Notes: generated by a model from the letters alone, not told the origin. Positions 1-52,900 are shown, counted from the first letter of the whole stretch. The stretch is DNA of 63,779 nt, filler included, from Reclinomonas americana ATCC 50394 (GCA_048213135.1; 4 parts of 3 records of this genome joined end to end with filler, not necessarily neighbours in it), one strand, 5' to 3'. Translations and numbers: made by a program.

Positions 1-3000
1 TTGGTGCGTGCGTGCGTGCGTTTTCCGTGACATGGGATCGGCGAAATCTCATAGCCCTTTCCGCTCACTGCAGCGTACGGTGGCGAGCGTGCACCTCCAC
101 ACAAGCGCTATGCGAATTTCTTCGACCCCAACGCACAGATGTTGCGCTACAACGATGCCTGGTTGCTGAGCTGTCGTTGCGTCATGGACATGTTGGCGCC
201 ATCTTTTTTAATACGCATGTCATGTCATGACCGAGCTTCGATCTCGACACGCAGGATCATGGACGTGGACCAAGCTGCCGGAGGCCTTTCAACAGAGCGG
301 GCCACGGCCTATCCGCTGGCACTCGATGGTGTCGATGCCCGAGTCGGAGCAAGTGATTCTCTACGGCGGCAGTGTCGAACCGACCAACTCGGACGAAACG
401 CTCACCTTGTCCAGCATGTTTACGTTGGATGCGGCCGATCTGGAGGTAGGCCATCTACTACCACGCCTTTGTGTTGTTTTCCTCTCTGCTCATCTGACTG
501 CGCGCAGCCGGACAACTCGCCATTAGCACCGGAGGAAAATGGCGTGTCTGCGCCGCCCTCCTCAGTTGCTGCCCCTGCTCCTGCTCCCGCCCCTGCTCCC
601 GCCCCTGCCCCTGCTCCTGCTCCTGCTGCAGCACCAGCTGGCAGCGCCGTGGCAAGAGTCATTGATGACTCTCCCTTGTCGGTGCGTCGATGAAAGATAT
701 CGCACTCTGGTTGCCCGCATTGCTCACACATGCGTGCGGCTCTCTGTGTGCAGCGTGGTGGCGCATCGGCCAGTGAAATCGCATTGGCCAAGCACGTTTC
801 TCCGCCTCCACAAATCGTGGTCGATCAGCCTGACAAGCCAGCAGCTCGACCATTGCTGGTTTGCTGTACATCTTCACTCCTGTATACTCCTGTTCGCTCG
901 CTGAACACGATCGTCGCGTAGCCCGAGTTGGAGGAGGTGGAAGAATCGGATGCGCCGCCGATAATCGCTGTTGCGCCGCCCACCGATCCCACACCAACAC
1001 CAGTGCCCGTGCCAGCCTCCACTGCTGCAGCTCCACCCTCTGCCGATGTGATCAAACCACTACCCACCCTGTCGCAACTCACTGGTATGGACCCGATGCT
1101 GTCGAGCCGCTCGGCAGCCACCGACGGCACGGAAGATGCGGATGAGCCGGTTCGTGCCTTCACGTGCGCATGCATGTCTCTCACTTGTGATCGATTCGGC
1201 TGATGGACCGTGCGTTGACCAGGAACTCTCATCGTCGGACAGCGAACTGTTCCGCCTGTACGACCACCTGTGTTACATTGCGATGGAATACGATCCGACT
1301 GAAGACCTGTTGGAGGTATTGTGGCGTCGTACTCAGCCACTACGCTGTCGGTCTGCGCCTGACCTGTTTTCTGCGTCTGTAGATCCTGCAAGTGGATCGC
1401 TCCCTGCCGTATCGTGATTCAGTGTTCCCGGCCACGGCACGATCAGTGTCGCGGACAGCAGGGACGCCATCTCTTGGTGCGTGCTAGCATTCCATGCGGC
1501 TTGCTGGACGCTCGGTGCAGTACTCATTTGCTTCTCTCTTCTATCTCGTGCAGCCGCTTGCGATCGCTGGGTGCCGGCATCGTCGCTGACCGACGAAAGC
1601 GGACAGCCTCTCACCTTGTTCGGCTCGGTGCCACTGGCCGAGCAGCGTCTGCACAACAACAAGATCGACACGGGCGAGTTGTCGACCGTGATTGTTGGTG
1701 AGCTACGAGCTCACTCTCCTTCTTTCACCGCGAATGCACTCTTATGTTTGTGATCACAGCACTGGCCTCGAGCATCGAGCGACTGCAAGACATGATATTG
1801 GTACCGTCGGAGAGCCGAGCTGGATTGTTGCGTCACAAGGGAGTCCTTTCACACTCGCTCCTCGTCAACCGCCTCACCACATCCACTACAGCTACGTCGT
1901 GCGGTTATGGGTCAACGGTCGGCAAATGTACGTGGTGGTGGACGACATGTTCCCGGCCGACGAGGATGGCGTCCCCATCTCCATCTACTCTGGTTGGTGG
2001 CCTGGTCGTCTCGAACCCTCGCTCCCTTATTATTTGGCACGTGATGGCTAACGACGAGTCGCAGAATACGCTCTGTGGCCGATGGTGTTGGAAAAGGCGT
2101 ACGCCAAGCTGTGTGGTCATTACGAAGCTCTGCGTGTGTCATTCGAACCGCACGATTATGAGCCACCAGCTTCGCCATACACGCTGAGTTGCGTCGCTTG
2201 ATGTGTGCGCCACCGCAAGTTCCATGCACTGCCTTTGCTCATCATCATCATCGTCGTCGTCGTCGGTAGAGCACTCGCCACTTCCGGCTGGTGTCCTCAC
2301 CGTGTACGATTTCGTTTCTGACTTTACTGGATTGCCGGCGCATGAGATGTTGCGCTCGCGAGTCCCAAGTGACCTTCATTTTTCGATCTCATCGCGTGAT
2401 TGTGGTGCGCAGTGAGCTGGGAGAGAGCGCCGAGTCGCGTTTCGACACACTGGACAGAATATTACAGTCGGGGTGAGTCACGCGACGCTGCAGAGGGAGA
2501 GAACCACCCCGAGTGTTGACGTGTCCTTCTCACTTTCACACAGTGGCGTCATTCTGACTCACTGGCGTGACCCGACGGCCGAGGAGATGGCCGATCGGAA
2601 CTTGCCGCCGTTTGACGAGGGCTGGGGCTGCGTGACGCGAGTGCACAGATTACGGGGCGCGCACATGCTGCTCCACGTGGTTCCATTTACGGACAACACT
2701 CGTGAGTGATGTCGCGTTCTGCCATGTTGTGAACGGTATGCTTCAGTCTGACTCTCTCTCTCTCTCTCTCTCACGCACAGCATTCGATGGTCGCTGGTCG
2801 CACACTTCACTGATCTGGGAGGATCTCAAGAGTGACAAGGTTTGCCGCCTCTCTTCACTTTGTAGGACCTCCATCCCCGCACTCACACCATGCATCTTCA
2901 CAGGCGGCACTGCATGTGTCGGACCGCGACTGCGGGGTATGGATGGAGATTGACGAGCTTGCCATGTACTGTGACAAGGTGTTGGTGGCCGCCGAGTCCA

Positions 3001-4376
3001 CCCCCGACATGCCGTACAAGCTGACGATCATGGTACGTGTTGTGCGCAAGCTTGTGTTGATATCGCACGGTTGATGACGCGTTCGGATGTACAGAGTCGC
3101 AACACCGGAAGCATGATGGTGGAGGCCGAGTCGCACTACTTTTTGGAGATTGCCGAGGACTGGACCAAAGTGTATGCGTATCTCATGGCCGGCGATCGAC
3201 GATTCAACTCTTCACGAGCGCTTCGCGTGTTTAAGAAGCCAGATGGTGAGTGTGAATGCGCGCATACGTGTGTACTACCACGGCAACACGCTGACACCAA
3301 CTCGCACCAGGCGTACGTGAGCGCCTGGAGGATTTCGACTCGCTGGAGCTGGCCACCATCAACGTTTGTGCGTCCACCCTTGACCGGCACTGCTTCCTCC
3401 ACTGCTTCCGCCTCCTCATCGTGCCGTGACTTGTCGCAGCCCATGGTCTCGAAGCCGGACTGTATGTCATGATTCCGTTCGTGTCGCAGCGCTTCTCGTC
3501 CTTCCGGCTGGTGGTGTGCTCCGATCGCCCTCTAAAGATACCATTTTGTGTGCTTGTGCTTCATTCCATGTCTGGCTTCGCGGTGCTGACAATTCTGTGA
3601 CGCGTGCACATGTCCAGCTTCCCCGACTCGGTGCTGCCGCAGATGCGAACGCACTTTCGCGCTTGCGATCCATCGGCTGACGGCCGGCTCAAGACAGAGC
3701 AGCTGCAGCAGCTGCTTGCTCGCGTCGGTGCGTGGCGCACGAATATGTGCCAGCAGCTGCAGAGGGAGGACTGAAATATAGGCGTGCTTGTGCATGCATG
3801 CAGGTCAAATATCGACGCCGTCGGAGCTGCGCGAGGCCATTCGCAGCATGGGCCGTGGTCGCGAGATGAGTCTCGACTTTGAGGAGAGCCTCATGTTGCT
3901 CACGAGCATGTGGTTGGTGCGTGCACACGGGATGACAATCGTGCACGAGGTGCTGTATGCTGCTGCTAACCCATGGTTTTCTTGCGCTGCGCAGCCGGAG
4001 GCGGCCATGGAGCACTCACTGCGTCAATCATTCCGAGCCATTGACACGGACGCCAACGGATACATTGAGCGCGAGGAGCTGCGCTTGTTCCTGCTGTCTC
4101 TCAGTCAGCCACTATCGGACACCGAGGTTTGTGACAGACAGGCAGGGGGGAAAGGGAGTGCCGCGTGCCTCATGTCTCACTTGCCGCGTCAACGTCGACA
4201 CAGATCGAACAACTGATCACATTGGCCGATCGCAATGGTTCCTCCCCATTCTTGGTGCTGTTTATTCTACGTTCACTGTGGCTCACCCACTCCTTCACTC
4301 TATCCCCACAGGCGACGGACGCATCGACTACGATGAGTGGGCGTCGAGTCTGCTGGCCGGACCACTGTCCCATTGA
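1..4376 (+). CDS. Kelch-repeat + calpain-like (CysPc, domain III) + calmodulin-like EF-hand protein, about 20 introns, 5' partial; probably catalytically dead
   Basis: Spliced translation gives Kelch-like YNDAWLL/PRPIRWHSM/VILYGG, a Pro/Ala linker, calpain motifs AGFYVVRLWVNGRQMYVVVDDMFP, LWPMVLEKAYAKLCGHYEAL and DFTG, domain-III-like GLYVMIPF, and EF-hands FRAIDTDANGYIEREEL and ADRNGDGRIDYDEW. Stop TGA at 4374-4376. Confidence 0.8.
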
Positions 4377-4471
4377 TATTGATAAAGAGTGAAAGAGAAA
4401 GCCATCCTCCTTCTCCTCCTCCTCCTCCTCCTCCTTCTCCTCTTCTTGCTTGTGCTCCATCATCCACTCGC

Positions 4472-6539
4472 ATGACTCGCGTGGTCACGCTGCTCATTGC
4501 CTGGTGAGCACAAATCCAGTGATCCATACTCCTGAATGAGCTCGCATTCACACACACTGACACAGTCCATTCAACGGTGCGGTGGACGAGTGCACGCTGC
4601 CCTCTGACGCCAAAGTTTCCACTCTGTTGGACCTTGCACGCGGCAAGTTGGCCTCGTCACGCTCCGCTGGTGTGTGAGGAAACATTCCACGCGCCAGTGC
4701 GCTCGCTCATCATTCATCATCTCCTCATCGTGCAGACGCGCTGTCGTATGCCTCGTGGCGATCGGCGTTCGACTACTCACTCACACACCCGACCAGTCAT
4801 GCTCCTCTTGACACGCACGTCACGCTGGAGGAGGCTGGATTGCGTGATCGCGGTTGGTCGAAGCGAGTTGTCTCTCGCTCTCTTCGCATGTTCTTCTGCT
4901 CATTCGTGTGCGCTCGCAGATCTGCTGTTCCTCACGCAGAATGTGCGTGAGACGGCGTTGACAGAGGTCAAGCCGGCTGGGCGATTCCCCACTGAGGACG
5001 ACATTCAACGGGCGACCAGTGCGCTGCCGCCGGCGCCGTCGGCCGTGGAAATGCGCAGAACGGTCTGCATGAGTGGACGTGCGTGTGAGCCAGTGAGTGG
5101 CACTGACCGCCTGCTCCACACCAGAGTCGCTTCTCGGAGGCACTGTGCCGACGCCATCGCGTGGGATCGTACGGGCAGTCGCAACAAATGGCCACCCAAT
5201 TGACATCCAACGAGCTCGCGTCGCTGCTTCCGCGTGTGCCGGCTGCCGCTCTGGCGCAGCTGGTCGAAGTCGGCTTCCCGGACCTGCATTGCCGCAAGGC
5301 ACTGTACATTGCTCGGTGGGCATGCCGTTTTTCGACACTGTTGTGCTTGTGTGAGTGTGTGTGATGTTGCTGAGTGTTTGTGCGTGCGCGCTACGCAGGT
5401 TCCAGGTGGCGGTCGGATTGGAGTGGCTGCTGCGACATGCCGACACACCGGCCGTGCTGAATGCTCCTTTCACACGAGATGAACTGATCGGTATTCTGCG
5501 TGACCTCGGCGTGTCGGTGCCCGTTCGGCTGCCGTCGCCACCGCGTGCACCGTCGCCTCCACCAACACGCACAGTGCCGAGCAGCAACAGCAGCAGTGCC
5601 AGTGGCGGCGGCGGCAATGGCGGTGCCAGCAGTGCGTCGGCTCAGGCTTCTTCGGCCAGCGGAGGAGCAAGTGGATCACCTGCGGTCGACGAAGCAACCA
5701 GCACTGCGACGTTTGTCGCTGAAGAGGTTTTGCAGCCTTGATTCTGGTTCTGTTCTATGGAGAGCGCATCACTCATCTTTGTGTCACTGCCAGGTTCAAC
5801 GACAGCTGGCAGAACTGCAGGCGCAAATGGCGGAGTTGCAACAGCAACAGGAACTCATTCGTCGGCGATCGGCAGCAGCAGCGGCTGCGGAGGCTGCTTC
5901 CGGCGGCTCGAGCGCGGAGATTGCTGCTCGCGAGGCGATGGCGGGCGTGGAATTACGAGCGCGCATCACTACGTTGGTCGAGGCAATTGCGCGCCCACCT
6001 TTTGAGCCCGACGAGCAGGTGTGCAGACAATTTACCGGTAATGTCTGTGTCGCCTGCTTTGCTCACCCTTTGCACGCCACAGTCTCTCCGTGTGCTCACA
6101 TCCATGGGCTTCGATCACGAAAGAGTGCTCGACGCTCTGCGTGCGTCGCAGAATAACTATGAGCGCACGATTGTCATTCTTCTCGAGGATCTGCCAGTTG
6201 AACCAGCTCCACAGGTGACTTGATCGGCAGATTCATTTTTTGATTCAACGCCCTCATCGTCATGGCATTGTACGTGTAGGTGGACCCCGTGGTGCGCATC
6301 TTCCTCGCCCAACCAGCAATGCAGCGCATTCTCAGCGATCCACGTATCGTCCGAGGTTCGATCCTTGTTGTCGAGGCCGTCGACCCTCGCACACAGTCTA
6401 ACTGTGTTTTCGTCCTGACGCAGGATTGCACGAGCTCGTGAGCAACCCGGCCAGTGTCGACCGCCTCATGGGCGACCCGGAAATGTCGGTTGTCTTGCGC
6501 CACATGAGCGACCTGGTGACGCGGCATGAACAATCATGA
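4472..6539 (+). CDS. UBAC1: UBL-UBA-UBA-STI1 protein (UBAC1/KPC2-like), multi-exon
   Basis: Ubiquitin-like LDTHVTLEEAGLRDRDLLFL, UBA1 LAQLVEVGFPDLHCRKAL..GLEWLLRH, UBA2 LTSMGFDHERVLDALRASQNNYERTIVILL, and a C-terminal STI1-like PAMQRILSDPRIVRGLHELVSNP..MGDPE. Confidence 0.7.
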
Positions 6540-8581
6540 AGCGGCGTCGCGCTCATTGACACTGTCGTCATTGTTGTTGCCGTCGTCTCTCGCCAGTTCA
6601 TCCTCCGTCGCCTCTGTGAGCCACCAATGTCCAGCCTCCTGCATGTCGACTTGCTTGTTGGCGCATCCGACCGCTCCGTCGTAGTGCAGTAGCGGCGCTG
6701 ACACTGCGCCGGACGTCGGTCGCAACCAACGCGTCGATGCGACGTCGTCCGGCGAGAACAAGCACAGAGAGACTTTCGGTGTCGGTGTCGTGTTGGCCAG
6801 TGACGACGTTCCCGGCAGCACTTGCATGCTCCACCGCAGCGGTTCCTTGCGCAGCAGCTCGTTCAGCGACTCAGACACGGTCAAATGGGACCAGCGCTGT
6901 CGACCGCGCGAGTTCTGAATGTGGCGAAGTGAGCGCCGCAAGAGCGCAATACTCGCCGGCGTCGGTTGCAAGTGGGCGACGGCAAGCGAGAGAGGGAATA
7001 CACCGGAAGAGGTGAGCGCAGCTGCACTACCCATGGTCCAATCACACTGCTGCGGCACGATCGAGTCCAGTGGGTTGTCTAGCAGCACTGCGTCGTTGTC
7101 CATCAGAAGCACACTGACGCCGCGCTCCAGAATCATGAGCGCCGTCTGCAGACGATAGATCTGCAAGCGACGCTGCAGAGGGGATCCTGCGTACTGCTCC
7201 GGGTCCATTGCATTCAATTCAGTTGCTGCCAGCCAGTTCGTTGGAAAGTGAATAACATCAGGCAGGTGGTGGACGTGTTGTATCAAGTCCTTGGCCGTGT
7301 AGGAGGTTGCAATGTACAGAAAGGTGGCTGACACGTAAGCCTTGCGAACGGAGCACACAGAGTTGGCCATCAACGTCGTATGCACTGGATTGGCTGACCA
7401 CAAGGCAACCAGAGAGGGCTTCCGTGCAAAGAGATCAGCAGGCCATTTGTCGGCGACAGCGACAACAGAATTGCCAGTGAGATCTGGGCACCGACCATTG
7501 TCATCCAGCAGCCACTTGCCCGCATCACGCAGGGCGCGTTCCTTCTCCGCAGCACCCATCGCACGGCCCACGTGCACCACGTGTTCCTGCATCGCAGCCG
7601 CGGACCACACACACAGACGGCATTGACCTGAGTTGCCAGCAGCAGGTGCTTTGCCCGTCTGCGGCAGCAACTGCCACGCAGGCTGTTGCGTAGTCAACCA
7701 GCGGAACAAAAGTTCGTGTGTCCACTGACTGCGGCCGCGCGACGGGTGCGCCACAGCATGCAAAATCCACTTCTCAAACATGGTGGCCGACGGTGTGTGG
7801 TGGCGAATCAACCACACGCCCGGATGTATGTACGGCAGCGGCGACGAGTCGGCTGGCGACCGTCCACGTTGCTGCAACACCCAGTCGCACTTGGCCAAGG
7901 CGGGCCGACGCAGCACCGACCTCTGCAGCATAACATCGCCCAGCACCACATCGGCATCCAGCAACAACACATCGTACCCTCGCCGCAGCAGCAGTGCAGC
8001 CACACGATGTACGGCCACGTGCAAACGATGCCGCGTCGACGTTCCCGGCCACGCCATCGTCGCTTGTGCACCACCTGGCACTGCGTTCACACGCAAGTGC
8101 GAGTATCCGTGAGCGAGTAACTCGGCCGACGCCGACTCATCCAGCGCCACCGGCAACACATTCCCGTCGCCAACACGGTGCAATTGCAACAGCAAGTTGA
8201 GCAGCACTTGCACACACGCACCATCGCTCCACGTGACCATCACGGGCGCCTTGACCAGGTGCAGTCCGTGAATGGCGTCGTCCACGGAACCAAACGCCAC
8301 CGGCGAGGCAGAAGTCTGCATCGCAAAACGAGTGAGCTTGCACATCAACAGACGCATGCGCGCACACACACACACGCACACACACGCACCACCACTGCAG
8401 GCAGCGAGTCCACGGCACCGGCAATGACATTGTCATGTTCGGAAGTGGACGAAGGCGCCGATGTGTGCGTGTGCAGTTGCCACACGGACCACGCGGCGAA
8501 GAGGAGCACGAGCGTACCGAGGAGAATGCGCACGAGTGGACGAGTGCGCCAGGTCATTATGTGTCGACCAAAGCGGCGCAT
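6534..8581 (-). CDS. Type II membrane glycosyltransferase with two tandem nucleotide-diphospho-sugar transferase (GT77-like) domains
   Basis: Exon 1 (8581 or 8557 to 8390) has a signal anchor, ILLGTLVLLFAAWSVW. Exon 2 (8315-6534) has two DxD motifs, LLLRRGYDVLLLDADVVL and MILERGVSVLLMDNDAVLLDNP. Confidence 0.75.
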
Positions 8582-8661
8582 GCACAAGGCAAAGAGAAGC
8601 AAGCAGTGCGGGACGGACACCGCTAGCGACCGAACGAAGGCGGACGCTGGCAACACCGACG

Positions 8662-10518
<1,857 letters not shown>

Positions 10519-10559
10519 AAAATGAAATGCTGGGTGTGTCCTCGCCGTTCCCTTGTGAA

Positions 10560-10763
10560 ATGCAACGCCTTGGCAGGATCACCGCCTCCAACTTGTCTGC
10601 CTTCTTGTGTTGCGACATCCAGGTCATTCTACCCTCACCTCTCACACACCGACGGACGCTCTCACTCTCACACATAACACACTCGTGAACAGACTGCGTT
10701 CAGGTCGCGCATCTACAACATGAGTGCGCTCATGCAGTCGGCGCTCCTGCTGGTCAGTGTGGA

Positions 10764-10797
<34 letters not shown>

Positions 10798-11594
10798 GGC
10801 TGATGTGCTGTCGTTCAGAACAAAGTAGCGACTGTCATGAAAATCCCCGTCGTGTGCACCGAGCACAACAAGAGTTGCGAGTGTGTGATGAAGTGCGCCT
10901 CCTTGTGGCCGTCGGTGAGTGACGCGTACGTGCTGTGCAGAGGTGTTTGGTCCGACGGTCGACGAGATCCAGCTGCCGTCGCATGCGCAAGTCTTCCAGA
11001 AGCTCCGATTCTCCATGTGCTCCTCCGAGACGATGCCGCACCTGCTACGGCCAAGCACCAATGCCTCGCATGTGGTGCTGTATGGCATTGAGGTGCGTTG
11101 CGTGAGTTGTCGGATCGTCGCCGTCTTCCCCAGTGACTGACTGACGTGGTGCGAGACAGACGCACATTTGCGTGCTGCAAACTGCGCTGGAACTGCGCGA
11201 CAAGAACTTTGAGGTGCACATTCCGCTTGACGCAGTCTCCAGTCAGCGGCAATACGATCGGCACGCAGCGATCGAGGTGCGTTTTGCAGCTGACGTCGAT
11301 GGATTTCTCTCGTCTCTGTTCTCATGCCGAATCACGCTGCAGAGACTGAAGGCGATTGGGTGCCACATGACGAGCGTCGAGTCGTTGCTGTTCCAGTTAA
11401 TGGAAACTGCCGAGGTTCGCGCGCGTTTCGCAGTCCTGCTGCTGTTGCTGTCCGTCATTTTGTTTGTGATTCACCAACGGAGAGTTGTGTGTGTTTCCCA
11501 GTCACCATACTTCCGTGATATCATCAAGCTGGTCAAGGAGGTGGATCGTGGCACACACCGGAACTTCCTTGTAGTGGACCCTGTCAATCATTGA
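10560..11594 (+). CDS. Isochorismatase-domain protein (ISOC1/2-like)
   Basis: AFLCCDIQ, IPVVCTEH, FGPTVDEI, KLRFSM, VVLYGIETHICVLQTALEL, DAVSSQR, ESLLFQLM. Six introns. In-frame upstream ATGs exist at 10527 and 10515. Confidence 0.9.
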
Positions 11595-11670
11595 CAGGAG
11601 CAGGAAGGCGTTGTGTGTTGTCGACAAGTGAATCATCTACCTCCAAATTAGGAAGTCGGCGTTGGGCGTC

Positions 11671-14600
11671 ATGTTCAGATCCGGCTCTTCCTTTGTCTTG
11701 CACAAAGTCGCCATCGCGCTCCTTTTGTGTACAGTGCTGGCGGCAGAGGGTAGCGCGCGAGGTCAGCTCACGATCGCTGGTTTGTTTCTGTCTCGCCTCT
11801 GACGCCTCACGCAGACTTTTCGGTCGAACGCCTGGCGACCTTGAGCAGTGTGCTGGACACTCTGGGTGAGTGAGTGAGTGAGTGCTGCCTGGGTCGATTA
11901 TCACTGTCGCAGATGCCTCATGTCGGTCTATCACAGCCACGATCTCGGAAGCCGTGATGCAAACGGACAGCAGTCAGATGTCACGAGTTTGGCCGTACGT
12001 CACCGCCGACGGCTGCCTGTGCGTCCATCGTGAAGGTTACACACCACTCTGCGTGCCACGCACGCCGTTTGCAATGTCTCATGGAGCCTCTGCATGGAGA
12101 GCAGACGCTGCGGTGGTGGACTCGGATCCGCTGCTCGCGTTGCTCCGGCGACCGAGTGTGTTCAGCGTGCGCACTCGACTGCAGCAGGCTGTGCCTGTCA
12201 ATGCCACTCTGCTCGCGCACGACGCAGACTGGTGGTGGAATCCAAGTCTCTCGTGCTATGCAAAATCCTCAGCCTCGTCGCAGTGTTTGCCTGTCCGCTT
12301 GACTGCTGCCTGCCGGCTGCAATGTGCCGGCGACGACAGACGGGTGCTCAGTGACTATTCCGGTGCAGTTGTCCTTGTCTCTGTGTCTCTCCCTCTCGTG
12401 CACATTCTCAGTCGCAGCAAATATGCAGCCGACGCGTTTGCGACCATGTCCACCGCCATGTGGCTCACCAGCAATGTGCTTCACGAATTGCAGCAGCTAG
12501 TCGAGCAGCGTCGGGCGGCAGATGTTCTCTTTGCAGGTGTGATTCGTAGGTCGTACTTGTTGAGCGACCGTCTTGTGCTGACTGCGTCTTCTGCGTGCGT
12601 AGACGACAATCCATCAGCGGAAAGCACGTCTGCGCGGACAGTCGCGCTGATTGCCTCCGTCGCTGGTGTTCTTCGATCGACGTTTTTTAGCGTCGACTTT
12701 GCAGATCCGCTCCTCAGCGCATGCAAGACCGAAATGACGATCGGTTCACTACGAGAGAATGTCGCCACTCTACCGTCGTCGCAACTGGTGGAAGTGTCGA
12801 CGCTGCGTTCGTACCTTCTTTCCTCGGTTCTTCCGCTGTTGGAGAACAACTCGACACTTGCGATCGGTCGGCAACAGGGTGACCACTGCACCACTATTGC
12901 TGTCAATGCTGACTTCGAATCGATGTAGGTCAACCAGAGATACAGGCTGCCAGCACTCAGTTGCACCTATTAATGACGGCAGCGCTGTCGGTACGTCGGT
13001 GGGCGGCCTGTTATGGGCGAAGTTTTTCTCGCTGATTCGATATACGGCGCAGGCTGCGCGGGCGAGGACGGATGCTGTTGTAGGCTTGTTTCGCAATCCC
13101 ACCGTGTCGCTCCTTATGTGTGAGGTGGCAGTTGCGTGCAGCAGCTCTCGCGGGACTCTGTGTCCTCCGTGACATTCATGTGGTGTGTTGCAGCTGTTTT
13201 CGAAAACGGTGACGGCAGCGCTCTACGGACAGGCATTGCTTGCGGTTTTCGATCACGCCGCCATGCCTACAGCCAGCGATGATGCAGCAGAGGACAGGTT
13301 TGTCACTGCTCTCGTCGGCATTGATCGCAAGCAACAGAACCTACGCTCATGTTCATACATGCAGTGTCGATTTGGAATCCGCTGCTTCCGTTGTCGACGA
13401 AGCGGTCACTGGCCTGGCGCAGTCACTGTCCTCTGTCGCCGCTGCTTCGCCGGATCTGCAGAGCCTCAGGCTGTGTCTTGGGCGCGTCATCATCGCCCCC
13501 TCGCGTGTGTCCATGGCCGACTGCGACACCGCGTGGACAGCAGTCACCACAAGTGCGCCGTCGGTGAGGGCTGTGCGCCGACTTTGGCGGCAGGCGAGAT
13601 TCTCTCGATCTCACGTGATCATGAGCATTGCAGGTGGGTTCCGCTGACTGGTTGCTCCCGTCCACACTTGTGGCACGCAACGTCACCCTTGTGCCGAACA
13701 TCACGTCTGCCAACTACACGTCGCTGTCCATCGCCGCACGGCGTTGGTCTCTTTTCAACGAAACACTCCTTTCCGTGGACATTCTCGGTGGGGACACACT
13801 CACCCTATGCGTTGCATCGTCATTCCATCGCCTTATCGTTCATGGCAGCAGATGGTGGTATCATGCTTGGCACGGAGGAGTGCGCATGGCTCTCGGCTGG
13901 CGCCTGTGACACGTGGAGTTTTGCGTATGATGTCACCGTGCAAGTGCCAGTACTACGAATCCCTGCCGCGGCTGAGCCTCCTGCGTATTTATTCTCCAAC
14001 AACGGCATGCACACGGAGGTGCCAGCGTCGATGTGGCACACTATGGCCAACACGGCTGTCACCGCAGCGACACAATGTCCAGACGGCTCATTCGGTGAGT
14101 TTCCCGCGTGCACATCATGTCCCGTAGGATACTACTGCCTGGGCGGCACGAAGAGGTGTGAGCATGTGTGTCGCCTGTCAGTGATCCCTGGCGTGCATGG
14201 CCTCATTCACTCCCATGATGGCCTGACCAGACCGTGCGAGAATGCGCCTGCTGACGGCAGTGCTGCGTACACCACCGCGGGCGAAACTACGTCTCAGTGC
14301 GCCTTTCGCTGCCTCGCTGGTTCGTATTATCGCTCCGGAAATTCCTGCTCTCTTCTGCCACTGGGCATGTACACGGTGGACGGTTCCTCGGCACCCCTGC
14401 TGCCATGCATGGTGCCGCAAGTTGCGTGGTGTGCTTGACTTGTTGTTGCTTGAGTAACTTGGTCGGTGACTCTGTCAAAATCAGAATGTGTCGACTGTTG
14501 TGCCGAGTCACCTCGTTTCGTTTGCGGGCGGTGGCACGATGCACAACGATTCGTCGTCATGTCCACTCGATTACCCGTATGCGCTGGCCACGGTGGCAGA

Positions 14601-17600
14601 CTCGTTGCGTCTGTGGTGTCTCCTTCTTGACGATCTGCACGCGTGCTCACACACTTACCTGTACACACAGACCAAGTTGCCTTCTCGGTGCCGACCAGTT
14701 CACCATGGAGGCGTGGTTTGCATTGAATACTACTCTTCTGTCCGCGCGTGTTTCCCTCTCGGACTCGGTGGCCTTTTCACTGCTCTCGTGCCCCGGTTAC
14801 TGGTATCGCGAGGCAGTGTTGACAATAACTCTGGCAGTATCGCCTTTCACTCACATCTCAATCGCAGGCACTGGTTTCTTGTGTGCAAAGCTGTGTTGCT
14901 GAGCAGTACGCGGCTCAGTTGTCAAGCGAGCTTTGTTGTCATCGACAGTGGCCCGCAACCGTCGGCCGTGTTCAGTGACCCCACAGAAAGTTGCATACCG
15001 TCTGCATGTGCGCGGTTGTTGGCCGCTGGCCATCGCTCATTGGTGGATGCAGTTCCCGTGTCGACATGGAACCATGTGGCAGTGCGCTTCCGGAAATCTG
15101 CTGCCGAGCTTGTGTTCACGCACAACCGTCTGGTCACTGGCGTGCGGTGGTTTCAAGTGACAGACGCATTTCAACAGAGGGTTCGTGTGTGACCAACACC
15201 ACGTTCACTATAGTCTCCTGCGCGTCTCGTTGAGTGCTGTCAGCAGGTGGCAGCCGCCCTGGCATCGCCGATTGACGTGGTGTTTCTAAGCATGGCTGGC
15301 TTCAATATGCGACTCTCGTCGGACCTGGTGGCTCTCGGCCTGCCAACTGTGTCGCTGAAATTTCCCGGCAAGGTTGGCGACTTGATGATGTTTTGTGCGT
15401 GAGTAGTCAATGATACCTCAGACTCAAACGCACCACAGATGAGCGCTATTCGTGTGCTTCCACGGTATGTTCGGCTGGACGACTTGTCCGTGCGATCGAC
15501 TGCCATTGATGTCACACGATGCTCAATTGTTGATCAGTACGGTTTGTGGTAAGACGCTCCAGTGTCCGTGCCCGCCGTCTTCTTGTTCAACGCACACACA
15601 CACAGCCGGCGACCGCTGCACCTGCCCAACCACACTGGCTCACGTCTATCGCAATTCATGCGTCGCTCCGTGTCTGGCTGCACAATCGGTAGCCGTCGAT
15701 GGCGCATGCGCGGTGAGCGGATAGCATCAATACTGCGAATTATGCTCTCACGGGAGACCTCACGAACCTACGATGCAGTGTCCGTCGGCCTCATACTTGG
15801 TGTGGTATCCTGCTTCGCTGGCACTGCCTGCCGATACACTGATCACGGGCCAGTACGTCTACAATGTGCTCGTTTTCCAGGCCACCACCGCGTCTGGCAG
15901 CAGCAGCAGCAGCAGCAGCTTCAGCACCAGTGTGCAGGCTCTGTCGGTGCGCAGTCTGCTGCCTGGCGCGGTACACTGTATCTGCGGCAGGCCATTCATC
16001 GTGTTAGATACAGGTCGTAGACGGCTCATGGGAGCATGTGGAGACCGACGCACTGTGTGTGATTGGGAGTGCCATTGTATCATGCCCTGGACGCGTCGAT
16101 TCCTCAGCAAGTTCACAAGGTACATGCTCAGCAGGTTCGCTCCCTGTGCTGCACTAATTTCTCATTCATTCGCTCGTTGTACAGGATTCCTGCTTGGTCC
16201 CTCGGCGACATTCGGCGTTGTGCTCACCGCCTCCGGTCGGCTTGTGCCTTCGCCAGCAGTGTTGCAGGCCGTGGCGCAGTTCACCATCGGTGGCATCTCG
16301 TTGCGAGCGACGGGAGCCGCGGGGATCTCTGTCAGCGCGCGCATTCTGCAGCTCCCGCTGCCTCCGGCGGCCATTGCAGCCGGTCAATGGCAAGGCTTCA
16401 GTGCGCAGGTGATTGAAGCCAGTAGCGATGCGTTGCCACTTGGCGTGATGATACCAGGTGCAGTGGTGCTGGCTGTTGTGGTCACGACATGTTATTATCA
16501 TTCTGAATCGCTGCTCCTTTGTGTCGCAGACAGCACCGCCAACAACACGACGTGGTCACTGGTGACTCGCACGGAGGGACTGTCGTCTCCCAACGCATCC
16601 TGTTTTCCGTGTCCGACGACCACGGTACGCCTGAATAACTTCGTATCCATAGCTCACTCGCTGCAGTCGTTCATTCGCACACAGGATCGCACAACACCAG
16701 CCTCGCCGCCCTTCACCAGTGTCGCCAGCTGTCCATGTGCAAGTGGTCTCACTCGCAACGCGTCGGCCGCTGATCCGCTTGAGCGTCTCCGTTGCGTAGC
16801 TTCTGCGGGGACGACGCTTGACATTCCCGAGTGGTCCACAGCTGAGCGGTATCAGCGAGTTGCGTGCGACGAGCGCCCTGTGCGTGTGTGTGTGTGTGTG
16901 TGTGGCTTGCTCCGTGTTGTGATCTCACAACCGCAATTCTCTCTGCCGCAGACCAACAGCACAGTGGCCGTTACTGTCGGAAATGATGCCAACGCACTGG
17001 CCGCTGCTGCCTGGCTGCGAGTGACGGTGGCACAGTCAGTGAATGACGCTGCTTCGTTTCCTGTCGCCAGTATGGTGACACGGCCGTGCGGCTCTGCTGT
17101 ACTGCCTTCTGTCACCGCCGTGGGCGACCTGCGTGTCGACTGGTCGCAGACTGTGCGCGTATTGGATGGAACGGGGTCGGTGCTGTTAACTGCAGTGGAT
17201 GATTCCAGGAGCATCTCCGCCTGCCCGCGTCTGCGGCTGCAGCTGCTTGCGTCTGTTCAGCTCACTGCGACTGTCGACGCCGCTGGACGTCGCTCCAGCT
17301 TGGCCTCCGTGCGGTTCGTGATGGTACTCGCAACTCGACGCTCCCACGGCGCTCTTATCTTCTCCGCAGGTCCTTTGCTGTCGCTCCCTGGTCTCCCGCA
17401 CCCGCCGTGTACCCGCTGCCAGCCTCGAACATGTGAGTGGTTTGGTCCAATCATTATTTCCACTTGCAGCGCGCTCACACGTCGTCGTGTTCGGACGCAG
17501 AACGGGCGTGTCGTTGGCGGTGCTGGCCACGCAAGCCTCGAACGTCACCATCTACTACACGGTGGACGATTCACCGGTGACAGTCCCGGCCGACGCAGCC

Positions 17601-18153
17601 GGCAGCAACGATGTACGTGCGGCGACTCAGAACACCACTCGTGTGTACTCTGCGAGCAGTCCACCCGTGGTGTGGCCGGGAGCCGTGTTGCGTGCCGTGT
17701 CTCGTGTGAATGGTTTGGCTGTCAGCGATGAGGTGCGATGGGCGTACCGTACCGACAATTCGACAGTCGTGGTGGTCTCGCCCAACAACAGCACCGCCAC
17801 GTCCACCAACAACAGCACGTCGTCAAACACCGCAGCAACAAGCGCCGACAGGTACTCGCATGCATGAACGTGTGTTTGCGACTCCATACTGACATGCCAC
17901 CAGTGGTGATTTCTGCACGAATCAGCGCACAGGCTGCATCGTTCTGAGCACCGTCAGTGCGGTGGTGCTGGCCGTTCTTCTCGCCGTGCTGCTGGTTCCC
18001 GTCTGCCGCCGTCGGCGGCAACGTCGACAAGCGGGCTACAAACTGCAACCACTTCCAGATCATCAACAGCAACAACAACGGCGGCGGCGGCGACGACGAC
18101 AACAACGACAAAGACCACTACGTGAAGAGCAACAACGGCGATTGGACCAGTAA
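11671..18153 (+). CDS. Large single-pass (type I) cell-surface protein: signal peptide, Cys-rich repeats, LamG-like region, Fn3-associated/chitobiase-C-like domain, TM helix
   Basis: N-terminus MFRSGSSFVLHKVAIALLLCTVLAAEGSAR; CPDGSFGEFPACTSCPVGYYCLGG; FTMEAWF...WNHVAVRF; TIYYTVDDSPV...VLRAVSRVNGLAVSDEV; TM helix VVLAVLLAVLLVPVC followed by RRRRQRR. Internal exon structure only partly resolved, so it could be more than one gene. Confidence 0.55.
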
Positions 18154-18189
18154 AAAGAGCTGCACTCGCAAGCGGCGTTATTACTTGGG

Positions 18190-19209: not shown

Positions 19210-19248
<39 letters not shown>

Positions 19249-19825: not shown

Positions 19826-22247
19826 TCAGTGACGACGGGCAGCCGAGCGATTGCGCTGCTGCTGGTGCTGTTGATTAGTGAGATCCGCGACATCTTCTGA
19901 GGCGGAGCTCGTCAGCAAAGCGGCGGTCATGGCCAACTCAAACGCTTCGTCGTTGGCACGGCTGTTCGCTGATCCCGACTTGCCACGTTTTCGCTGCGCC
20001 GCCGCCGGCTGTGATACGACCGCACGTATTATTAGCCCGTTGTAACAAAACAGGGGAAAACCAAAGCTGCATCAACATGTCAGACCTTGGACTGCTTGCC
20101 AGTCGCCACTGGCCGCACGGCCGCCGCCGCCGCAGTCGTCTCTGGCGTTGGCGATGGCGAATGGTGCAGTGGCGAGGACGACGATGGTGGTGGTGGTGGC
20201 GGTGGCAGCAGCGGCGGCGGCGGCGGTGGCGACGAGGAAGTCGAGTTTGGCGTCTCCCCACCAGTGGGAGTTGTCGGCGACGAGGCCTCGATCGAATGCT
20301 GCTGCTGCTGCTGCTGCTGCTGTCGGCGACGCACAATCGGAATCGGGCGGCGGCGTGTGCGGCCATCGACAGGCACACGCGGCCGGTTTTCCAGCGTCCC
20401 ATGTCGGCGCTTGTGTTCGTGACAGGCGTTGCAGAGACGCACACGCAGCTGCGTGACTTCGTCCATGTAACCGCGCCACTGCGGAGTCTCGCGAGTACCG
20501 CAGTGAGCACACACGCGGATCTCTCCACTCGCCGCTGCTCCGCCGGCGGCGGCAACCACTGGCGCCACCAGTGTGGCACCGGCCACCGGAATACCGCCGT
20601 CCAGTGGAGACGCCGCGGCGGCCAGCAAAGGCGGCAAGGAGCCAGCAGCAGAGGGCGCACCAAAGCCCAACGCCATGAGCGACGGCGGTGGCGGCGGCGA
20701 TGACGACGACGACGAAGAGGAGATCTGCAACGATCCGGACACACCAACGATCGCCTGCACATGAAAGATTCGCGCGCATGATCGGGGCATATTAGCCAAA
20801 ATCAAGCAGGCAACTCCATAAAAAGTAAAGCACATACCGGTTTCTTTTGGTCAGCTGTTGCCGACGGCGACGACAAGGACGCCGCCGACGAAGAAGCCGA
20901 CGTACGACGCTTGCTTCCACCGCCAGCGTTGCTGCCGCTGGCACCCGACGACGCCGGCGAGGCCGATTTCTTGTGGGAGGCGGATGTGGCGGCGGCGGTG
21001 GCGGCAGCGGCAGAGGCGGCGGCAGCAAAGGCTACGCTGGCCGCGGTATGCGGTGACAGGCACGCGCCACCCTCGGCCCACGAGTAGAAGAAGCCGCCGC
21101 CGAACGGACGAGTGCTGATGGGCGGTGGCGGTGAGAAGGTGACGGCAGAGCTTCCAGACCCTGAGCCGGCTGCCAGCGCCGACGACGCCCCGGCCGACGA
21201 TGGGGATGACAAGGTGGAGGAGGAGTACGATGATGACGACGACGCGCCGTATCCATTCTTGCCGTTGGCAGGACGACCACGACCACGACGGCGAGGAGGC
21301 ACTGGAAACTCTTCGTCCTCGCTGCTCTCCTCCTCCGCCGGTGTCGCGGCGTCACCGTCCCTGTCCTCGTCGACCAACTCCTGATCCTCCTCCATGCCAC
21401 GACGACCACTGTATCCGCGCCCGACACTGTCTACATAGTCGACATCATCCTCGTACCGCGATCCCGTTCGACGCTTGCTGCTGGCGGCGGCAGTGGCAGC
21501 AGAGCCGCCATTGCGCTGCTTACTGGCAGCCGCGCCCCGAGTAGACAATCCACTACCACTGCCACCAAACGGTGACGATGACGATGACGACGACGACGAC
21601 GACAGCTTGGAGGTGGTGTGCGGCTGCGCAGCTCGGGACATGTACACCGACGACGGCAGCGGGCGGGAGGCCGGCGACGAGATATCCGACGGTGGTGGAC
21701 CCACGGGCCGGCCCGCCAGCGAGTGGTACAGCTGCAGGTGCGAAATGCCTGCTCGTGCGTCCAGGTCAGACATCACGCGCCGCTGTAATGTAAAACACCT
21801 CGAAAAACGCAACAGTCGGTGCACAGGTCCGTCTCGTGCAGATTCCGCTCGTCGTAGATCGACAGCACGATGTGCTGCCGGCAGTGGCTGCAGTGTCGGC
21901 GCGTGGAGGGAAACTCAATGGGAGAAAACGCCCGCCGAGCTCCGTGGTGGTGGTGGTGGTGCGACGGCGGAGCCATGAGGCCGCTCATGTGCTGAAACGG
22001 CGACGGACCGGCAGTCGACGACAACGATGCAACTGCCATGGGCAGCGGTGACGAGGCCGCAAGACTGGAGGACGCCGGTCGACCCACACGGTGCACCATG
22101 CTCGACTGTGTAAAAGTAAGATTCGCCAGCGAGGCGACGACTGACAACAGAGCGCGCGGTACGCACCAGAGCCTGGTGATCCTGTAGCGGCGACATGATG
22201 ATCGGCTGTGGCAGCTCGCCACACAACGGACCCGGCAGGCACTCCAT
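19826..22247 (-). CDS. GATA-type zinc-finger transcription factor, low-complexity rich
   Basis: CAHCGTRETPQWRG...LCNAC in ORF 20080-20835, flanked by Ser/Pro/Gln-rich exons. Start codon uncertain. Confidence 0.75.
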
Positions 22248-23932: not shown

Positions 23933-25245
23933 TGGTGGCGGCGGTGCATCCTCGGCTGGTGCTGCAGCTGGTGGCGGTGGTGGTGGCGGCGGGGATGGTG
24001 GTGCTGCTTGTGCCACTTCCTCCGGCGCTGCTGCAGCAGCGGACTCGGGTTCCTGCTGTTGCTGCGGAGCCTACATCAAACAAAACGCATCAGCTCCGAC
24101 CACGGTTCACTGTGGCTTCTGCTGTTGTTGCAGTTGTGTCACTCACCTCGTCCGTCTCCATCGCCTCCACCACTGCTTCGCTGGCCTCTGCTGCCGCAGT
24201 AGCCACTACACAACAGTAAGGAAGGGAAAGAGAGAAAGAGACATCACAGGGACACACACACACACGGGGAGACGCACCCACAGGCTCGGCAGGCTCCTCT
24301 GGCTGCGCTGCTGCTTCCGCCGGTTGTTCTGCTGCCTGTTCCGGTTGCGCCACCACTTCTGCTGCTTGTGCCACCACCTCTTCTGGCTGCATCACCGCCT
24401 CTTCTGGCTGCGCGACTGCTTCCTCTGGTTGTGCCACTGCTACCTCTTCCGGCTGTGCTGCTGACGGCGGTGGCGGTGGTGGCGGCGGAGTTGGCGCTCG
24501 TGCTGCGGGCGAGGGAGGTCTGACTGCAGCCTCGGCTGCCACAGGCTCAGCACTGCCATCGTCCGCGTCCATCGGCACCGGCTGCTGCTGCTCCTCCTGC
24601 TCCTCCTCCGCCACCTTCTTCTTCTCCTCCTCCTCCTTCGGCTGCTGCTTGCCCTCAGCCTCCTCCTCATCCTCCACTTCCTCGTCCTCTTCCTCCTCCT
24701 CCTGCTCCTCTCCCTNNNNNNNNNNNNNNNNNNNNNNNNNNNNNNNNNNNNNNNNNNNNNNNNNNNNNNNNNNNNNNNNNNNNNNNNNNNNNNNNNNNNN
24801 NNNNNNNNNNNNNNNNNNNNNNNNNNNNNNNNNNNNNNNNNNNNNNNNNNNNNNNNNNNNNNNNNNNNNNNNNNNNNNNNNNNNNNNNNNNNNNNNNNNN
24901 NNNNNNNNNNNNNNNNNNNNNNNNNNNNNNNNNNNNNNNNNNNNNNNNNNNNNNNNNNNNNNNNNNNNNNNNNNNNNNNNNNNNNNNNNNNNNNNNNNNN
25001 NNNNNNNNNNNNNNNNNNNNNNNNNNNNNNNNNNNNNNNNNNNNNNNNNNNNNNNNNNNNNNNNNNNNNNNNNNNNNNNNNNNNNNNNAGACGGAGAGAC
25101 GGAGAGAGAGACGCAACTGCGTGAGGAAAATGACCAGCGTGTCATCCTCGGCGCGCTTGTGCTTGTTCTGTGCCTTGCCACTGAAAAACGCTGCCGTGTT
25201 GCGCACGACCTACACAAACGAGCGATAATCAGATGGAAGCAAACA

Positions 25246-25285
<40 letters not shown>

Positions 25286-26888: not shown

Positions 26889-27477
26889 ATGATGCTGGCA
26901 CAGCGTCGTGAAAAGCAGCGGCGCGAGGCCGAGTTGCGCAAGCGCGAACTGCGCATTCGTGAGCAGACCAAGAAGCAACTGCGGTTCGTTGCCTCTTCTG
27001 TGTGCTTCTTTGTGATGATGCCGGTGCTGATGTGTGTGTTTGTGCGTGTGGGCAGGAAAATCGAAGAACACCATCAGTCGCTCCTCAACAAGAAAGTGCG
27101 CCTGCTGGAGAAACTCAAGCAGATTGAGAGTTGTGTGCGATCACCAACCGATCACCAATGCCCGTTATTCACCCGTGCTCCCGATCGATGCAGCGAAAGA
27201 AACGCTGCGTGACACACCGGCGCCGTCATTACGACAGGCGGGGTACATTGCATCGCTCGGCTCCGACTCGCCGGCATTTGATTTCCTGCAGGTGTGTTTG
27301 TTCCACCGTGTCAGTCACTGTATCCATGCGTGCCTCATCCTGCACCAGCGAAACACGACGCGCTTGAGTGCCGAGGACCGGGGCAGAATACAGCAGCGCG
27401 CACGTGAGCGAGTGGGGCGGCGAGTGGCGTCGCTGGCCGAGCAGCTCAAGGACCGCGTGGAAGACGCCACCGTAAAA
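26889..27477 (+). CDS. Coiled-coil protein, 3' truncated by contig end
   Basis: MMLAQRREKQRREAELRKRELRIREQTKKQLR then KIEEHHQSLLNKKVRLLEKLKQIE, with in-phase GT-AG introns. Confidence 0.5.
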
Positions 27478-49973: not shown

Positions 49974-52900
49974 ATGGACGAGGAGAAAAAGGCGGAGGAT
50001 GAACAGCAGCAGGGGCAGGCGAGCAGAGGGCCTTTGCGTTGCGTGCTGAGAACGATTGCAAAAGGTTGTGTTGTTGTTCTTTGGGCTCATTTGTGTTTGT
50101 GTGTGTGGGTGACAACAGTGCCTGTGGCGGCGGTTGTACGGAACCCGTTCTTGACAGGTATTTGTGTGTATACGATGCAACATGCAGAGAGAGAGAGAAA
50201 AGAAAGACGGAGTGAGTTTCGAGTGATAGGCTTCTTCTCCTTTGCTCTCTTTCTCTCTTTCTCTCTCTTTCTCTCTCTCTCTCTCCTCTCCTCTCCCCTC
50301 CTCTCCGTGCACATGTACCAGTCGCCTTGCTTCTCTTCCGCACTGCATGTTCGAATATGTGCCTTGTTGTCCCTGCGGCTCACTATGCGTGTGTGTGTGT
50401 TTGCTTGTGTTTGCTGTAGCCGCCCCGGCTGCTGCTCCGGCTGCTGCCACAGGTTCTCCGTTTGGGCAGCGACCTGGAACAGGTCAGTTGTTGCTGCCCT
50501 ACTACATGCGTGAAGCAGTGTGGACTCACTCATTGCAGTCGCCCCTGCGAGCTCGTCGCCATTCGGAACGCGCAGCACCACTGCTCCGGCACCAGGTTGG
50601 CTCACCTCCTGTTATCTCCGGTGTGGCGTATGCTGCTGATTGTGTGTCACAGCTGTCCCTGCTGCCGGTTCTCCCTTTGGTCAGCGACCCGCTGCAGGTT
50701 GATCGGCTTCTGTTTCGTTCTGCGTGATGTGTTCACGCTTACAAACTGTTCCGTCACGCAGCCGCTCCTGCGAGTCTCTCGCCCTTTGGACAGCGCAGCG
50801 TCACTGCTCCGACAGTGGCGAGTGCGGAAGGTTGGCAATCCTTGTTGCAGTGCACTGGCGGCAGTCACCAATTGTCTCACGCATCTCTCTCCCTTCCTCA
50901 CAGCAGCACCTGCGAGTCTCTCGCCCTCTGGACGTCACGATACCGCCGCAGGTGCTCTACCACTTGCCGTTTCTGCCACTCGGTTGCCTTCAATTCACTC
51001 ATTCCACTGCGCAGCTGCCTCCGCTACGAGCGGTAAGTCACTCGCCAGCAGTCCGTTTTCTCGCACTGCCGCCGGTTCGTGTCGCATGTTGTTGTCATTA
51101 ATGTGTTTGGTGCTCATCACCTCAATCTGCCAGCTGGCCCTGCCACTGTCGCACCCGCCGCTGATGCCGCGGCGTCAGGTGTGTTTTCGTCATTTTTTGT
51201 CTCTGTCGCGTCTCCCAAATCTGACTCGCATGTGCAGGAAGCACGCTGTCACCCTTCGGAAGCCGTCAGATCGCCACAAGTTGCGGATTCGTGTGTATAT
51301 CTGTTGGTCAGTTGTTCTTTGGCACTCATCCCGTGTGCAGCGCTGAGAACAGATCTCAGTCCACCTGCGGGCAATCAAGGTACTGGTCCTCGCTCTCTCT
51401 CTCTCTCTCTCCGCCTCCTCTTCCTCCTCCCCCTCACCCCGCAGCACTTGCTCCCATATTATAGAGACCCACGACAGCGGCAGCATCTCCGCAGCGGCCT
51501 TTAAGAATCCATTTTCGGCACTGAAAGGTGTGAACAGCCGAGTGTGTGTGTCCTCCTCGCACTCACCCTGCTCACCAACAACTCGTTGTAGAGAATCCAT
51601 TCACCAGCACGACCGGCAGGGGGCCGGCAGTTAGAAAAGTGCGCTCACCCAGACGAGTGCGTGCGCCAGCGCCCCCCGCGCCTTGTTGCGTTACCTGTGC
51701 GCCGGCCCGGGTCACCTCCTGTTCTGTTCGTTGCTAACCAGAGGCATGCTCGTCACAGACGTGTTTGACCATTTGCACCGACTGGCACCGCACCCGGCGC
51801 ACCCGTTGCCAGAGGGCGTATCACAGGCGCCACCCGAGGTGGAACTCTTGGGTTCTTCAGACACCCACCCTGTTTCGTAGCGTCTCATGTTCCTGACCGC
51901 GCACAGGCACTGGAGGCAATCTGGAATTGCATCACGCAGTTTTTCGTGTGGACCGACTACACATCGCTGTGGAGCGTGTCGGAGTGGTTGTGCCGAAAAA
52001 TGGAGAGGTGTGTGTGTATGTTGATAGCGGAAGCAGCCGGTTCATTCGCGCACGTTGCTTACCTATTTGTTTTGACTCGTGGTAGCAATCTGCTGGAGGT
52101 TTCGCTCAATTTCTCATTTGGCTTTCTCGCGTTTGGCACGATTCTGCCCACGCAGTTTCCTAAACTGCATGCGGTTTGCGTGCACCGTGCCAGTTTTGTG
52201 TCATTCGCTTGTGCCCTCTCCTCTCCAGCAGCAGCAGCTCACGATGACGATGATTTGATGTTGGCGCTCAGTGTTTGCCGTGCCGTGGGCTAGGGCGATC
52301 ACGGCGCTGGAGCCAGTGGCGGACCGCATCACCCGAATCTCCATTGTGCACGAGATTCAGGCCGAGTCGCGCGCGGGTATGAGTACGGATTGACGTGACG
52401 TCTCATGACATGCTACTTCCTCACCATTTCTCCTTATCATTGCAGATGGCCGCATGTTGCTCCACAATTTCCTTCCGCATTATCAGCACACGCTGACGGA
52501 ACTCAATCTGAGTGGCAGCAGGATACCTGCAGTGCGTGGCGTGTGTTTTCCCCCACCCCCTCTTCTTCTTCTTGTTCGAATCGTCGTCCACTAACATCAC
52601 TGACGGCAGGTCGTTGTTGAAGAGTTCATGTCGCAAGCGTCGTTGATGCCTGCTCTCAAGTGTCTTCGCCTCAACGCTCCCGAGATCGCCGACGGTCCTT
52701 GTCAGTTCGACTTGGCGGCTGCCATTACCCGACTTGAGGAGCTGCAGTTCTCGGCGACACTGAAAATGGCTCGCATCGTGCCGCTGGTGGCTCCAACGCT
52801 CCTCGCGGACACACTCACACAATGCACACGACTGCGTCGTTTGACATTGGACCGCTTCTGCAGTTGCGTTTGTCGCACCATTTTTTCTGGCTTCTCATCG

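Follow-up and report, generated by a model that had tools for sequence, protein, structure and literature searches.

How does a spliceosome recognise an intron whose donor carries G at the sixth intron position (+6) instead of the usual fifth (+5)? This question is raised by a stretch of Reclinomonas americana ATCC 50394 DNA (GCA_048213135.1) of 63,779 bases, hereafter the window, which has about 57% G+C and 15 runs of N and belongs to the intron-dense nuclear genome of this eukaryote. Its introns are very short (median about 70 nt) and, in our gene parse of the window, have a strong acceptor, YGCAG. In about one intron in six (23/141, approximately 16%), the usual donor G/GTNNGT (the slash marks the exon end) seems to be replaced by H/GTTGCGT, where H is any base but G. 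The computations described below support the predicted introns of this second class as genuine U2-type GT-AG introns.

A sequence-only reading of the window had listed 30 such donors. All 30 hexamers (26 GTTGCG, 2 GTTGAG, 1 GTTGTG, and 1 GTTCCG) are present where that reading had placed them, and the preceding base is, as it had noted, A in 16 cases, C in 8, T in 6, and G in none. GTTGCG as a word is not over-represented (73 copies on both strands vs. 60.5 expected under a Markov model); thus, the signal must be in the placement of its copies.

GTTGCG donors are enriched in a donor-blind gene parse

Introns were predicted with a generalised hidden Markov gene parser, self-trained on the window, which scores coding sequence by its three-base periodicity, acceptors by a matrix, and intron length by a penalty. 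Its blind version demands only GT at the donor and has no donor matrix, while the other version, here called the intron-position parse, adds a first-order donor model covering intron positions +3 to +8 only and no exon positions. The results showed that GTTGCG was the commonest donor hexamer among the 136 scorable introns of the blind parse (n = 11), followed by GTGTGT (10) and GTGCGT (10). GTTGCG makes up 73 of the 8341 GT sites (0.9%), as compared with these 11 of 136 donors (binomial P = 4e-8); in six runs with decoy dinucleotides, the best hexamer reached only P = 1.3e-4. The sequence-only reading had named a single position-independent matrix as the yardstick for this excess, and such a matrix, derived from the same 136 donors, predicts 0.62 GTTGCG donors against the 11 seen.

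The intron-position parse called 141 introns, 19 of them with GTTGCG; by donor, 87 carry +5G, 23 have the form GTTG[A/C/T]G (the second class), and 31 belong to neither class. Of the 30 listed sites, 14 were recovered exactly by the blind parse and 19 by the intron-position parse. A count of YGCAG at 45-120 nt downstream (29/71 for GTTGCG and 2606/8162 for all GT sites) lacked power, since the acceptor word occurs too often. Local enumeration of GT..AG pairs with codon scores gave 141 calls on the plus strand alone, mostly implausible, and was set aside for the full parse; a Pfam profile scan of short open reading frames (ORFs) yielded too few matches to set the junctions of a calpain-like protease gene.

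Homologues and tandem paralogues support individual junctions

Several junctions could be placed by protein homology. For a MYST histone acetyltransferase gene, a spliced model was built with the listed donors and aligned to 13 homologues. The alignment is gapless across junction 8741 (W-RDG-TRH), and across junction 8848 a 16-residue stretch is gapless in 12/12 homologues covering it; at junctions 9021 and 9159 the protein varies in length, so that homology cannot fix them. Likewise, in the model of an ADP-ribosylglycohydrolase-like gene, AGDLTNNGDQTLFLLESL is gapless across junction 30777 (AGDLTN-NGDQTLFLLESL) in 17/17 homologues. As a control, an Elp3 model made from five ordinary donors aligned over 246/246 residues, showing 78-83% identity to many unrelated eukaryote lineages.

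Further support came from two tandem short-chain dehydrogenase copies on the minus strand (window positions 31860-37100; copy A at about 31.9-34.1 kb, copy B at about 34.6-37.0 kb), whose exons are conserved (about 70-85% identical) and whose introns have diverged. At three intron pairs (33911 and 36643, 32561 and 35461, 32165 and 35072), the similarity stops right after GTTGCGT, and the exon-final bases within the pairs differ (C/C, C/T, and C/A, respectively). In copy A, conservation ends after GTTGCGTT at intron 33911, while at intron 32165 the exon CLCPGPTVSNIAKR is conserved and similarity is gone past the donor. The exon following intron 32561 of this copy adjoins the intron end at 32494; it is 24 nt long, encodes MAIYGGTK, and holds the YGGTK active-site motif. 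Neither this exon nor an 18-nt exon of copy A encoding SDGIGK (33379-33396, minus strand) could be modelled by the parser. Splicing out the introns restores the dehydrogenase motifs VTGA/SDGIGK, YGGTK, and PGPTVSN.

At a fourth intron position, the VTGA codons end the exon in both copies, and the next exon of copy A starts with SDGIGK. Here, the donor is T/GTGCGT in copy A (33472) and T/GTTGCGT in copy B (36246), which indicates that the two classes interconvert in place by insertion or deletion of one T.

In total, seven sites are backed by paralogue conservation. Protein homology or the tandem paralogues add six sites (8741, 32561, 35461, 35072, 36246, and 36643) to the 14 from the donor-blind parse and 5 from the intron-position parse, giving independent support for 25 of the 30 listed sites. 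Five extra donors that the list did not contain were also called (marked in Table 1). The observation of a GTTGCG donor class is thereby confirmed.

The last exon base separates two donor classes

Among the 141 introns, the exon-final base (-1) is G in 63/87 donors with +5G but in 0/23 of the second class (Fisher P = 5.5e-11), and the blind parse gave 54/74 vs. 0/16 (P = 3.4e-8). The split by the -1 base that the sequence-only reading had expected is thus borne out, and equal use of the motif after G, which it had set against its own proposal, is not seen: of the eight G-preceded GTTGCG copies in the window, 0/8 are donors, and the one in a sense exon (n = 1) encodes W-L-R. The second class is preceded by A in 14 cases, T in 5, C in 4, and G in 0 (n = 23). 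When only non-G exon ends are compared, the ratio is 14 A : 9 C/T in the second class and 4 A : 20 C/T in +5G donors (P = 0.0027).

Within the second class, +3 T, +4 G, and +6 G are each found in 23/23 donors, as set by the class definition, while +5 is C in 19/23 and +7 is T in 18/23, the latter mirroring the +6 T of ordinary donors (59/87). The earlier description of these donors as ordinary ones with one T inserted is too simple, since C at +5 in 19/23 compares with 35% among ordinary GTG-N-G donors (P = 3.6e-6). Ordinary donors also often carry +3 T (GTTCGT, GTTTGT, GTTGGT); it is by the displaced G rather than by the T that the new class stands out. As the computed counts further show, the extra T is allowed or preferred only where the exon end is not G.

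In length, base composition, acceptor, and branch motif, the two classes are alike, which argues against both a separate spliceosome and a mobile-intron family. The median length is 69 nt for the second class (22/23 within 63-93 nt) vs. 71 nt for ordinary introns, and no difference was found in base composition, CAG acceptors, or the CTCAC-like branch motif. All second-class introns start with GT, and of the 22 sized 45-130 nt, 20 end in CAG and 2 in TAG. In these 22 introns, 5-mer counts (made without alignments) over +8 to +35 and over the last 45 nt found no shared words past +7. Minor-class (U12-type) introns likewise place a second rigid donor motif beside a major class, but GTTGCGT is unlike the U12-type consensus. 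A U12-type identity was therefore rejected, the 3' words also being the same as those of ordinary introns, with CTCAC at the top in both classes.

Some other donors deserve a record of their own. Three of them have independent support and carry G at neither +5 nor +6: G/GTTCCT past the SDGIGK exon (33378, minus strand), G/GTATAC in Elp3 (41145, plus strand), and G/GTACCT in the ADP-ribosylglycohydrolase-like gene (30936, minus strand). All three follow an exon-final G, and strong exon-side pairing may excuse their weak intron positions. T-rich donors, mostly after an exon-final G, were found as GTTTTG at three sites (5727 and 41589, plus strand; 31014, minus strand) and as GTTTGC at five (859, 2840, 9630, 14716, and 47908, plus strand). 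GTTTGC keeps +5G, while GTTTTG, with G only at +6, fits neither class cleanly.

A shifted U1 register may account for the second class

We propose, with a probability of about one in two, that second-class introns are read in a +1-shifted register by U1 small nuclear RNA (snRNA), one U1 with an adapted 5' end serving both classes. At GTTGCG donors, U1 would pair one nucleotide out of its usual register, with +1G opposite U1 C9, +3U opposite A7, +6G opposite C4, +7U opposite A3, and an exon-final A opposite U10, and cleavage would stay at GU despite the shifted helix. The 5' end of this U1 would be adapted to GC-rich donors, for instance by G at position 5, and ordinary donors would be read by the same RNA in the canonical register.

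A +1-shifted or bulged register, or else variant U1/U6 snRNAs, had been put forward by the sequence-only reading. The -1 A, the invariant +3 T, and the G/T at +6/+7 fit a +1 shift, but the pairing with a standard U1 is weak: nearest-neighbour duplexes with the standard U1 5' end average -1.5 kcal/mol for the second class vs. -5.8 kcal/mol for ordinary donors. From this weak pairing and the nearly constant +5 C we infer an adapted U1 5' end, in which G at position 5 would account for the +5 C demand. With an assumed U1 of this kind, 20/23 second-class donors fold in the shifted register (mean -5.0 kcal/mol), and pairing at ordinary donors is strengthened as well. An Rfam scan of the window at the gathering threshold gave 0 matches, hence no U1 or U6 gene lies in it.

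A wider, and only tentative, proposal is a donor code with two registers, in which the final base of the exon would set whether U1 docks canonically (G/GTNNGT) or with a +1 shift (H/GTTGCGT). The shifted route would be constitutive for roughly one intron in six, owing either to a change in the U1 5' end or to another U1 devoted to this class.

Several points weigh against the shifted register. On the pairing side, only 7/23 second-class donors fold shifted with the standard U1 end, and the U1 ends used in the pairing model are assumed ones. A +1 shift by itself would not lead one to expect the complete lack of -1 G, as a G-U wobble with U10 is possible, and neither -2 nor -3 has a clearly preferred base. 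On the side of the gene models, all junctions are predicted from DNA sequence alone, the counts are drawn from a single 64-kb window, with the three paralogous intron pairs among them, and the parser called 98-122 introns even when GT was replaced by decoy dinucleotides, which means that its boundaries are loose. In addition, 31/141 donors fit neither class, part of them probably through parser error, and 5/30 listed sites (9021, 27746, 50038, 49756, and 25117) remain candidates. The sequence-only reading's own caveat of intron retention applies to 9021 and 27746, both in-frame and stop-free. At 49756, the exon before the donor resembles a mitochondrial presequence, and a stop follows after 15 codons if the intron is read through.

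Among the other explanations, we consider a dedicated second snRNA possible but doubtful. A U1 variant, or a U6 with a changed ACAGAGA region, would be fully complementary to A/GUUGCGU, so that two recognition RNAs would be at work. The motif is indeed rigid from +3 to +7 (with the +5 C and +7 T counts given above) and pairs badly with the standard U1 end, whereas for a hypothetical end with full complementarity the value is -11.2 kcal/mol, with 23/23 donors held in one register. Changed U1 recognition sequences are also described for Entamoeba and Mastigamoeba (Roy and Bowser, bioRxiv 10.1101/2022.06.08.495308). On the other hand, one U1 suffices for usable pairing with both classes if its position 5 is G, and acceptor and branch features are the same in both.

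A bulged register appears unlikely. U1 would pair canonically at +1/+2, an extra U at +3 (or +2) would bulge out, and pairing would resume at +4. The paralogue donors at the fourth dehydrogenase intron, differing by exactly one T, suit this arrangement, and a +2/+3 bulge has experimental support in human cells, with 54 curated sites of 201,541 (Tan et al. 2016, PMC4856993). However, in such a register the -1 base still faces C9, so that an exon-final G should stay favoured, in conflict with the 0/23 seen. Besides, a bulge would not call for T at that base every time, and it only weakens H/GTGCGT, which leaves the frequency of the class unexplained.

It is highly improbable that the motif was inherited from one mobile (introner-like) family with a GTTGCG end, the -1 bias reflecting the insertion target. 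A stramenopile lineage is known to carry introners, the best matches of the MYST gene are stramenopiles (47-64% identity), and the motif is uniform and the lengths narrow; but no words are shared beyond +7 (the top 5-mers being GT repeats or the CTCAC motif, as in ordinary introns), the lengths equal those of ordinary introns, and the classes differ by one T between paralogues at one intron position. We give equally little credence to a gene-modelling artefact, in which splicing would pass over most GTTGCG copies and either use ordinary GTs close by or leave the segments in the transcript: it could draw on the loose parser boundaries and DNA-only junctions, on the open frames of 9021 and 27746, and on 10 GTTGCG copies within predicted sense exons, but residue-exact homologue alignments span 8741, 8848, and 30777, seven sites are conserved between paralogues, and the motif is enriched in a parse blind to it.

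Gene content and predicted introns of the window

Recognisable genes in the window encode the MYST histone acetyltransferase, Elp3, Tim44, and the calpain-like protease, together with the ADP-ribosylglycohydrolase-like and isochorismatase-like proteins, the two tandem short-chain dehydrogenase copies, and three WD40 proteins. The three WD40-repeat genes (55811-63446, minus strand) are paralogous and consist of long single coding exons with one predicted 5' intron each; in this 10-kb stretch, the parse called no GTTGCG donor. A 632-aa open frame (6537-8432, minus strand) carries a nucleotide-diphospho-sugar transferase domain (Pfam PF03407), and a word-based homologue search with it found no relative at E <= 0.001. 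Introns and spacers are rich in (CA)n, (GA)n, and (TGCA)n microsatellites (e.g., 40070-40180, 10770-10795, and 8868-8890), which several N gaps adjoin, and the commonest hexamers of the window are CACACA/TGTGTG (318) and TCTCTC/GAGAGA (285). The predicted introns of the GTTGCG class are collected in Table 1.

Table 1 Predicted GTTGCG-class introns of the window and two comparators. Both parses, the donor-blind and the intron-position parse; new, absent from the list of the sequence-only reading.
Feature	Donor	Position	Strand	Support or remark
Intron	C/GTTGCGT	176..254	+	both parses
Intron, calpain-like gene	T/GTTGCGT	1827..1891	+	both parses
Intron, calpain-like gene	A/GTTGCGT	2188..2269	+	both parses
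Intron	T/GTTGCGC	2349..2412	+	both parses
Intron holding 20-N gap, MYST gene	C/GTTGCGC	8741..8778	+	gapless homologue alignment of spliced model
Intron, MYST gene	A/GTTGCGC	8848..8922	+	homologue alignment; blind parse
Candidate intron, MYST gene	A/GTTGCGT	9021..9095	+	75 nt, in-frame, stop-free; length-variable region
Intron, MYST gene	T/GTTCCGT	9159..9229	+	both parses
Intron, isochorismatase-like gene	A/GTTGCGA	10874..10940	+	both parses
Intron, new	A/GTTGCGT	13131..13193	+	first blind pass and intron-position parse
Intron	A/GTTGCGT	14421..14484	+	both parses
Intron	C/GTTGCGT	14604..14670	+	intron-position parse only
Intron, new	A/GTTGCGT	16859..16951	+	intron-position parse only
Intron	A/GTTGTGT	27130..27193	+	both parses
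Candidate intron	A/GTTGCGA	27746..27808	+	63 nt, in-frame, stop-free
Intron	A/GTTGCGT	28128..28202	+	intron-position parse only
Intron	A/GTTGCGT	28288..28360	+	both parses
Intron, new	T/GTTGCGT	29168..29239	+	intron-position parse only
Intron, coiled-coil gene	A/GTTGAGC	42359..42426	+	both parses
Intron	A/GTTGCGC	42792..42855	+	both parses
Intron	A/GTTGCGT	43589..43659	+	intron-position parse
Intron	T/GTTGCGT	47446..47515	+	both parses
Candidate donor	C/GTTGCG	50038..50043	+	frame argument only; in no parse
Intron, new	T/GTTGCGT	21749..21813	-	both parses
Candidate donor	A/GTTGCGT	25111..25117	-	intron runs into N gap 24716-25088
Intron, ADP-ribosylglycohydrolase-like gene	A/GTTGAGT	30700..30777	-	homologue alignment; blind parse
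Intron, dehydrogenase copy A	C/GTTGCGT	32089..32165	-	paralogue of 35072
Intron, dehydrogenase copy A	C/GTTGCGT	32495..32561	-	paralogue of 35461
Intron, dehydrogenase copy A	C/GTTGCGT	33813..33911	-	paralogue of 36643
Intron, dehydrogenase copy B	A/GTTGCGG	35008..35072	-	65 nt, retention = frameshift; paralogue of 32165
Intron, dehydrogenase copy B	T/GTTGCGT	35394..35461	-	paralogue of 32561
Donor, dehydrogenase copy B, intron into N gap	T/GTTGCGT	36240..36246	-	exon end ..VTGA as in copy A
Intron, dehydrogenase copy B	C/GTTGCGT	36572..36643	-	paralogue of 33911
Intron, new	A/GTTGTGT	39173..39246	-	both parses
Candidate first intron, Tim44 gene	A/GTTGCGT	49632..49756	-	frame argument only; in no parse
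Comparator: ordinary donor, dehydrogenase copy A	T/GTGCGT	33397..33472	-	junction fixed by VTGA/SDGIGK
Comparator: +5G type, MYST gene	G/GTTTGCG	9630..9702	+	15-residue stretch contiguous with homologues

Comparison with known systems

Human donors read in a shifted (+1) register were described by Roca and Krainer (2009) and retested by Tan et al. (2016, PMC4856993). At these sites, as proposed here, GU is cleaved normally and the U1 helix is displaced by one; they also lack +5G and carry G/U at +6/+7, and the tested site has A at -1. They differ from the present donors in that their A-rich +4/+5 positions pair with U1 pseudouridines, whereas +4/+5 is GC here, unpairable by a standard U1. The frequencies differ as well, since all validated noncanonical registers together make up 1.5% of 201,541 human sites in that report, vs. 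one motif in 23/141 introns of the window. Human +2/+3 bulge sites (Tan et al. 2016, Table 3) have one extra U right after GU, as in our paralogue pair, but their register predicts a favoured exon-final G, and their 54 curated sites make them rare in humans.

A changed U1 end that matches an atypical donor consensus is reported for Entamoeba and Mastigamoeba balamuthi (Roy and Bowser, bioRxiv 10.1101/2022.06.08.495308). The U1 of M. balamuthi has G at position 5, which pairs with +4C of GUGCGC donors, and the donors of this species prefer +4 C. In both lineages, one consensus has been transformed, whereas in the window two donor classes occur within the same genes. The GYGCGY donors of Mamiellales green algae and the +4C donors of Thecamonas, treated in the same report, resemble the ordinary donors here, among which GTGCGT is one of the commonest; for these groups, a standard U1 is reported to be kept, and the account given of them mentions no second, shifted class.

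A limited literature search found no published description of GTTGCG-type donors, which, pending RNA confirmation, are best filed as an abundant new form of known noncanonical-register recognition. Noncanonical U1 registers have so far been rare exceptions in human genes. Gene finders that rely on a single matrix mis-model genomes of this kind, as about 1 GTTGCG donor is predicted vs. the 11-19 found. If a free-living eukaryote uses the shifted register widely, the choice of register would be an ordinary, evolvable part of splice-site recognition. Such a genome would offer a natural system for the uncoupling of U1 docking from later cleavage-site choice, and it would show the co-evolution of snRNA ends with donors.

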